A DNA stretch of 64,000 nt from Escherichia coli (GTDB lineage Bacteria > Pseudomonadota > Gammaproteobacteria > Enterobacterales > Enterobacteriaceae). Position numbers and translations under genes: made by a program. The DNA is taken from assembly GCF_030384885.1 (NCBI RefSeq), contig NZ_CP128613.1, one strand, 5' to 3'. The notes below the pieces were generated by a model. It did no database searches. It saw nothing but the letters and a program-made list of their open reading frames with translations, and was not told the origin of the DNA. The first letter of the stretch is position 1. Every line of letters begins with the position of its first letter. Shown here piece by piece: positions 59,444-60,346 of this stretch.

Positions 59444-60346
59444 TTATTGATAAACAAAAGTCACGCCAATAATCGATTGCACATTCCCTGCAGTCACCTG
59501 CCCTCCGGTACGTGCGTAATTTGCCGTTAATCCCAGACTTACCGCCGAAGTCCCTACTGCTCCTAACGATACCGTGTTATTCGCTGGAATAATCGTACCG
59601 TTGCGCGTTAACTGTACGCCGACGCCCTGCGCTGGTGAAAACGACGCGGTATTGGTGAAAATCGAGTTGCCCGCATCTGCGGTTGTGCCGGAGAGGTAAT
59701 ACCCCAGGTTTTGGCTTTTCGCACAATAAACGGTAAGAGGAATCGGCACTGAACCAGGGTAGTCTGGCAGAGTCACGGTGACATCACGAGCAGAAACATC
59801 GCAGCCGCCAGTAGGCACCACCACATCATTATTGGCGTAAATATTCCACACAAACTGGAAATCATCGCTGTTATAGTTGTTGGTCTGTCGCAAAATAAGC
59901 ACGGCAATTAATGAGCCAGCTTTAATCGCCACCCCGCCCGCACTGCTCACAGGCGTCAAATAAAGCGCCACCGGCCACGGCTTATCCGTTCTCGAATTAT
60001 AAACAACGCGCGGCGTTTCGCTGGTGGTAGGAAATGGATAGCTACTGCCACTATATTTTACGGTCCCGGAAAAATTAGATAACACGCCGCCATAAGCCGA
60101 ACCTCGTTGCAGTGTGACATAGTCTGTAATGGTTTCCGGGTAATCGTTATGGCAAAAGATTTGCGTCGAAAGATCTACGACCAGGTTTTGCCCCACATTC
60201 ACGGCGGGCGCAAGGTTTACATAAACATTGGCGCTGCCACCGCCAATAGGGATAGCGGTGCCATTGGCGGTTTTACAGGCGAATGACCAGGCATTTACCG
60301 ACCAGCCCATCAGCAGTACAGCAAACAGGGTAATAACTCGTTTCAT
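59444..60346 (-). CDS. fimH: Type 1 fimbrial tip adhesin FimH (mannose-specific)
   Basis: 300-aa precursor from MKRVITLFAVLLMGWSVNAWS...; the track ORF is 3 codons longer; mature residue 27 is Ala. Confidence 0.95.
   Translation of the reverse strand: MKRVITLFAVLLMGWSVNAWSFACKTANGTAIPIGGGSANVYVNLAPAVNVGQNLVVDLSTQIFCHNDYPETITDYVTLQRGSAYGGVLSNFSGTVKYSGSSYPFPTTSETPRVVYNSRTDKPWPVALYLTPVSSAGGVAIKAGSLIAVLILRQTNNYNSDDFQFVWNIYANNDVVVPTGGCDVSARDVTVTLPDYPGSVPIPLTVYCAKSQNLGYYLSGTTADAGNSIFTNTASFSPAQGVGVQLTRNGTIIPANNTVSLGAVGTSAVSLGLTANYARTGGQVTAGNVQSIIGVTFVYQ

Follow-up and report, generated by a model that had tools for sequence, protein, structure and literature searches.

The stretch of DNA analysed here (64,000 nucleotides, referred to as the window) very probably carries an intact, ordinary fimH as the last gene of a type 1 fimbrial operon (fimA-H), encoding the consensus variant of the adhesin (A27, S62, N70, S78, V163). 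The alanine at position 27 of the mature protein is the majority state and probably the ancestral one, a term that rests on the zonal phylogeny in the literature and on majority frequency, and the valine of K-12 is a derived minority state. The informative strain marker in this gene is its rare pattern of synonymous sites, about which the first-pass annotation of the DNA was silent.

The fimH gene and its product

The interval 59444–60346 had been assigned correctly to fimH in the first-pass annotation, which gave no strand; the gene lies on the minus strand (Table 1), and the plus-strand translation of the same interval is a stop-riddled nonsense sequence. The minus-strand translation starts with the signal peptide MKRVITLFAVLLMGWSVNAWS and continues with FACKTANGTAIPIGGGSANVYVNLAPAVNVGQ..., comprising 300 amino acids and a stop. 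As noted before, the mature protein begins with FACKTANG and has alanine at position 27; solved mature FimH chains also begin at F1 (PDB comparison). The start of the 300-amino acid protein is identical to the annotated start in K-12 and in strain 2013C-4282, and an AGAG motif is located 9 nt upstream. A further in-frame ATG is found three codons upstream (60347–60355, minus strand; start at 60355). Because of this ATG, a 303-amino acid reading frame (MIVMKRV...) appears in the mechanical ORF list; the same start is used by some database entries, for example, the cluster member AAN83822.1. The exact 300-amino acid protein was found on at least 1000 contigs of a collection of 15 billion sequences, where it is named FimH (UniRef representative Q83TY4), and it corresponds to RefSeq WP_000832227.1 in 2013C-4282. 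At the fimH locus, no Rfam families and no promoter-like sites were detected, and terminator-like matches were within chance expectation.

The protein has the two-domain architecture of FimH, with a lectin domain and an incomplete Ig-like pilin domain. It aligned with FimH chains of the PDB over residues 1–279 (E = 1e-181), and the alignment to the solved two-domain chains was collinear and ungapped, with all four cysteines (C3–C44, C161–C187) present. The residues forming the mannose pocket (F1, N46, D47, D54, Q133, N135, D140) and the tyrosine gate (Y48, I52, Y137) are established in the structural literature on FimH; the former were all found at the expected mature positions, and the latter are all conserved.

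Table 1. Coordinates of fimH, its parts, and further features of the window (gene names of the restriction cluster follow the 2013C-4282 annotation)
Feature	Position	Strand	Remarks
fimH CDS	59444..60346	−	300 codons and stop; type 1 fimbrial D-mannose-specific adhesin
FimH signal peptide	60284..60346	−	21 codons; same as K-12
FimH lectin domain	59810..60283	−	mature residues 1–158, over which PDB lectin-domain chains align; holds mannose pocket, tyrosine gate, and C3–C44 disulfide cysteines
Mature FimH codon 27	60203..60205	−	GCC (Ala); GTC (Val) in K-12
FimH pilin domain	59447..59806	−	mature residues 160–279; C161, C187, V163; identical to K-12
fimG	60366..60869	−	tip adaptor; 167 aa, 6 substitutions compared to K-12, no stops
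fimF	60882..61412	−	minor tip subunit; 176 aa, 4 substitutions compared to K-12
fimD	61422..64000	−	usher; open, cut by the window end, lacks approximately the first 20 codons
Druantia type III ORF stub	29018–29353	−	111 aa
Druantia type III ORF stub	29350–30183	−	277 aa
mrr	18016–18930	−	
hsdR	19064–22630	+	
hsdM	22831–24420	+	
hsdS	24417–25805	+	
symE with antisense RNA symR	25962–26038	−	coordinates and strand of symR; Rfam RF01809, 93 bits
mcrB	26518–27915	+	
mcrC	27915–28961	+	

Comparison with K-12 and frequency of Ala27

The fimH gene of K-12 MG1655 (NC_000913.3, 4548808–4549710) was used as the reference. Both genes comprise 903 nt and were compared base by base without indels. Of these positions, 13 differ (98.56% identity), 12 of them synonymously; the change from T (K-12) to C (window) at nt 143, which results in V27A, is the sole difference between the proteins. 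Since codon 27 of MG1655 is GTC, K-12 does not share the alanine, and its valine had been given correctly in the first-pass annotation; the K-12-like residues Asn70 and Ser78 were found as well. K-12 FimH (b4320, NP_418740.1), whose sequence is that of the PDB entries 1KLF, 1QUN, and 4XO9, thus differs from the window protein in Val27 and at the DNA level in the 12 synonymous positions. It shares 299 of 300 residues with the window protein, as well as the length, the signal peptide, the pocket, and the disulfide cysteines. Both proteins are N70/S78, both have S62 and V163 at the other two positively selected sites (see below) and Thr at mature position 201, and the position in the operon and the neighboring genes are also the same.

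That the codon 27 difference stems from faulty sequencing or assembly of the window is extremely improbable. Although only a single base is concerned, the same 903 nt were found in an independent complete genome (2013C-4282), and the same 55-mer around codon 27 was detected in 1765 genomes at an identity of at least 99%. The exact protein is also present on the contigs mentioned above. Because the allele, the 55-mer, and the protein all recur, this explanation was rejected.

In a set of 5426 complete E. coli genomes, fimH was found in 5354, with a near-full copy in 4959. Codon 27 was typed using two 55-nt probes with nt 143 at the center and megablast seeding; because of this central position, each exact seed word of 28 nt must include nt 143. 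The GCC (Ala27) probe matched 4000 and the GTC (Val27) probe 934 of the 5426 genomes; codon 27 was thereby typed in 4934 of the 4959 genomes carrying a near-full fimH. Ala27 accounts for approximately 81% of the typed genomes, in RefSeq complete genomes, which are a biased sample, although it is the Val27 and not the Ala27 count that laboratory strains inflate. Many of the Val27 matches are laboratory derivatives of K-12 or BL21 (a spread sample included MG1655, DH5alpha, BL21, and C600-type strains). The genomes with Ala27 originate from cattle, chicken, goat, fish, and human sources. The suggestion of the first-pass annotation that Ala27 is a strain marker was hardly borne out, as a majority state with these frequencies hardly discriminates between strains. 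Being both the majority and the consensus state, Ala27 is a poor marker and predicts default binding behavior. Measured against K-12, the common Ala27 has the appearance of a variant, a reference-strain bias that is corrected when Val27 is regarded as the derived minority.

The consensus FimH and its predicted mannose binding

The Ala27 allele and its meaning are already known from the literature. According to Dreux et al., A27 is present in most natural FimH variants and in the consensus, and the consensus, evolutionarily primary FimH corresponds to K-12 FimH with V27A, while K-12 belongs to the consensus clade "with A27V substitution" (PMC3554634). Following the description in that paper, the consensus protein (Sokurenko, Dreux; PMC3554634) is identical to the window FimH, and the strains in its Table 1 whose sole deviation from K-12 FimH is at position 27 have the same FimH variant; the silent-site pattern of the window's DNA is rare. 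With A27, N70, and S78 and no further substitutions compared to the consensus, the window protein represents the primary variant of the N70/S78 clade. It does not belong to the S70/N78 clade, which is mostly found in phylogroup B2, UPEC, and AIEC.

According to the literature, FimH is a protein of the fimbrial tip, where a pocket of the lectin domain binds terminal mannose. Through contact with the pilin domain, the lectin domain is kept tense (T) and of low affinity; this T state equilibrates with relaxed (R) states of high affinity, and residues 27, 62, and 163 shift the balance. These three residues form one set of positively selected positions in urinary isolates (Kalas et al., 2017; PMC5302871), are located outside the pocket, and shift the T/R equilibrium of tip-incorporated FimH (PMC5302871; reviewed in PMC4810151). 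The first-pass annotation had named position 27 as a polymorphic site, which agrees with its documentation as a polymorphic, positively selected, and allosteric site (PMC5302871). In mouse cystitis, an engineered A27V/V163A double mutant of UTI89, which remains fixed in the high-affinity state, is strongly attenuated (PMC5302871; PMC4810151). In the accessible literature, this double mutant was the only one found, and no comparison of A27 with V27 alone in the N70/S78/S62 background was detected. The combination of A27, S62, and V163 with N70 and S78 would be expected to confer consensus behavior, that is, a low resting affinity for monomannose and shear-enhanced (catch-bond) binding. The window FimH should be a baseline adhesin with predicted consensus-like mannose binding, and with respect to function, it is to be treated as such. 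Of the possible binding relevance raised in the first-pass annotation, the allosteric nature of the site stands, but Ala27 is the consensus state and points to the default phenotype.

A different interpretation would regard Ala27 (V27A) as pathoadaptive and as the mark of an AIEC- or UPEC-like pathogenic lineage with altered, stronger binding, which we consider very improbable. The positive selection on position 27 in urinary isolates (PMC5302871) is in accordance with this interpretation, as is the origin of the closest genome, 2013C-4282, from human stool (CDC collection); moreover, a study cited as reference 49 in PMC3554634 argued, as reported there, that V27A is the primary pathoadaptive mutation in isolates from paediatric IBD. 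However, V27A is expressly dismissed as a pathoadaptive mutation by Dreux et al. ("unlikely to be pathoadaptive"), since A27 occurs in non-AIEC strains as well as in the consensus (PMC3554634). Genomes with A27, the large majority of those typed, come from every kind of source, and the window FimH has neither S70/N78 of the B2/UPEC clade nor A62 of UTI89, but S62. A pathoadaptive role of Ala27 is largely disproved by the frequencies given above, and we infer that Ala27 alone carries no special pathotype information.

The full-length FimH chains in the PDB carry one of three sequences. They differ from the window protein at one position (V27/N70/S78; 1KLF, 1QUN, 4XO9, and others), at two positions (A27/S70/N78; 3JWN, 4XOD, and others), or at three positions (A27/A62/S70/N78; 9CCS). 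The chains with Ala27, which we take to be FimH of strain F18 (3JWN, 4XOD, 4XOE) and of UPEC UTI89 (9CCS), share this residue as well as V163, the fold, and the pocket with the window protein. They differ from its N70/S78 and S62 in S70/N78 (3JWN type) or in S70/N78 together with A62 (9CCS type). The exact combination A27/N70/S78 was found in none of the full-length solved FimH chains in the PDB; the structural record is incomplete in this respect, which is no sign of an unusual protein.

Rare silent sites and the host lineage

The full 903-nt allele was found exactly in only one of the 5426 genomes, that of 2013C-4282 (NZ_CP027579.1; human stool, USA), whose annotated fimH is 100% identical to that of the window over the entire length; only 71 of the genomes reach 99% identity. 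The typing fragment at 59795–60283, presumably the 489 nt (nt 64–552) used in the FimTyper/Weissman scheme, matched exactly in two of the 5426 genomes (2013C-4282 and MB52). The window and 2013C-4282 are 99.9–99.985% identical over approximately 56 kb (approximately 99.95% in total), compared with 95.4–97.0% identity to K-12 in the alignable fim-uxu part. The gntP gene of the window reaches 99% identity in a single record, again 2013C-4282, and approximately 95.5% in typical E. coli. Sequences of 2013C-4282 that are missing from the window comprise 8,528 bp of a Druantia type III system, approximately 1.57 kb in iatD, and 9 bp at window position 10363; approximately six SNPs were also detected. 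The window thus represents a close relative or another assembly and not the 2013C-4282 record itself.

The complete genomes of Escherichia cryptic clade I listed by Okuno et al. (2023) include that of 2013C-4282 (PMC10100065); this clade is a sister group to E. coli sensu stricto. The main text of that paper contains no mention of fimH. Clade I placement refers to average nucleotide identities (>98.3% within the clade and approximately 96% to E. coli sensu stricto), and the 64 kb compared here most likely come from a host within Escherichia cryptic clade I that is close to 2013C-4282 and labelled E. coli. A clade I host would account for the rarity of the silent pattern in complete E. coli genomes, although the protein is common. 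For typing purposes, the rare synonymous pattern is the useful signal, pointing to the cryptic clade I lineage.

The fim operon and the divergence of neighboring genes

The last gene of the fim operon, fimH, follows fimD, fimF, and fimG on the minus strand, and the convergent gene gntP, followed by uxuA, uxuB, and uxuR, is located beyond it; this order is the same in K-12 and 2013C-4282. FimG donates the strand that completes the pilin domain of FimH. The reading frames of fimG, fimF, and the partial fimD are open, and their proteins are 96–98% identical to those of K-12 (for FimD, 841 of 858 aligned amino acids, no internal stops). The phase switch fimS, fimB/E, and fimA are located outside the window; in 2013C-4282, both 9-bp inverted repeats are retained with the spacing of K-12. 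The spacer between fimH and gntP (59260–59443) comprises 184 nt compared to 242 nt in K-12 (approximately 60–80 bp shorter), and gaps in the alignment were confined to this spacer.

Nei–Gojobori estimates compared to K-12 were obtained for eight neighboring genes (window positions 53864–64000). With a dS of 0.055 (dN/dS 0.027), fimH displayed the lowest dS of all, whereas values of 0.09–0.24 were determined for fimD, fimF, fimG, gntP, uxuA, uxuB, and uxuR (>0.2 for gntP and uxuB). Blocks of higher and lower divergence form a mosaic in this region, which is to be expected close to a recombination hot spot. In addition to the main account given above, the clade I fimH might have been exchanged with E. 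coli sensu stricto by homologous recombination, a possibility that we regard as somewhat doubtful. It is consistent with the low dS of fimH relative to its seven neighbors and with the identity calculated per 300 nt, which peaks at 99.7% in the lectin domain and drops to 92–95% in gntP. Similarly, the genomes of AR_0069, WS0115A, PK5, and LH10-b-1 have gntP genes with 95.5–95.8% identity to that of the window, but fimH genes with 99.1–99.2%. However, the divergence is patchy throughout the region (e.g., 99.7% identity was also observed around the start of uxuA), twelve synonymous sites are a small sample, and a contribution of chance or of constraint on such sites is conceivable. The occurrence of a sensu stricto consensus FimH with the lowest local dS in a clade I-like genome may tentatively be ascribed to recent gene flow between the clades or to unusually strong constraint.

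Defence genes, iatD, and a symporter gene

The 8,528 bp missing in comparison with 2013C-4282 (L003:21438–29965, where L003 is a piece of NZ_CP027579.1; junction at 29374/29375 of the window) cover most of druE (2114 amino acids; 2694 bits with PADLOC DruE3). They also include the 3′ part of druH, which in 2013C-4282 encodes 1096 amino acids (DruH3, 1829 bits). The Druantia type III anti-phage system of the window is thus reduced to two ORF stubs. Across the 5426 complete E. coli genomes, a 300-nt probe covering the junction never matched contiguously. In K-12, both halves are found in separate places, and its rearrangement is thus a different one. A restriction cluster of the "immigration control region" type (18016–28961) directly adjoins the Druantia remnant.

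The inverse autotransporter gene iatD (43906–47538, plus strand) is an open reading frame of 1210 amino acids compared to 1746 in 2013C-4282. The missing sequence is absent in frame; at 44019–44036, an overlap of 18 nt was observed between the two BLAST segments. This suggests a change in the copy number of internal repeats or a collapse of repeats during assembly. The 9-bp deletion is also in frame and affects a gene of the sodium:solute symporter family (ORF 9498–10967, minus strand). Apart from this deletion, small differences from 2013C-4282 over the 56 kb compared are limited to the SNPs mentioned above.
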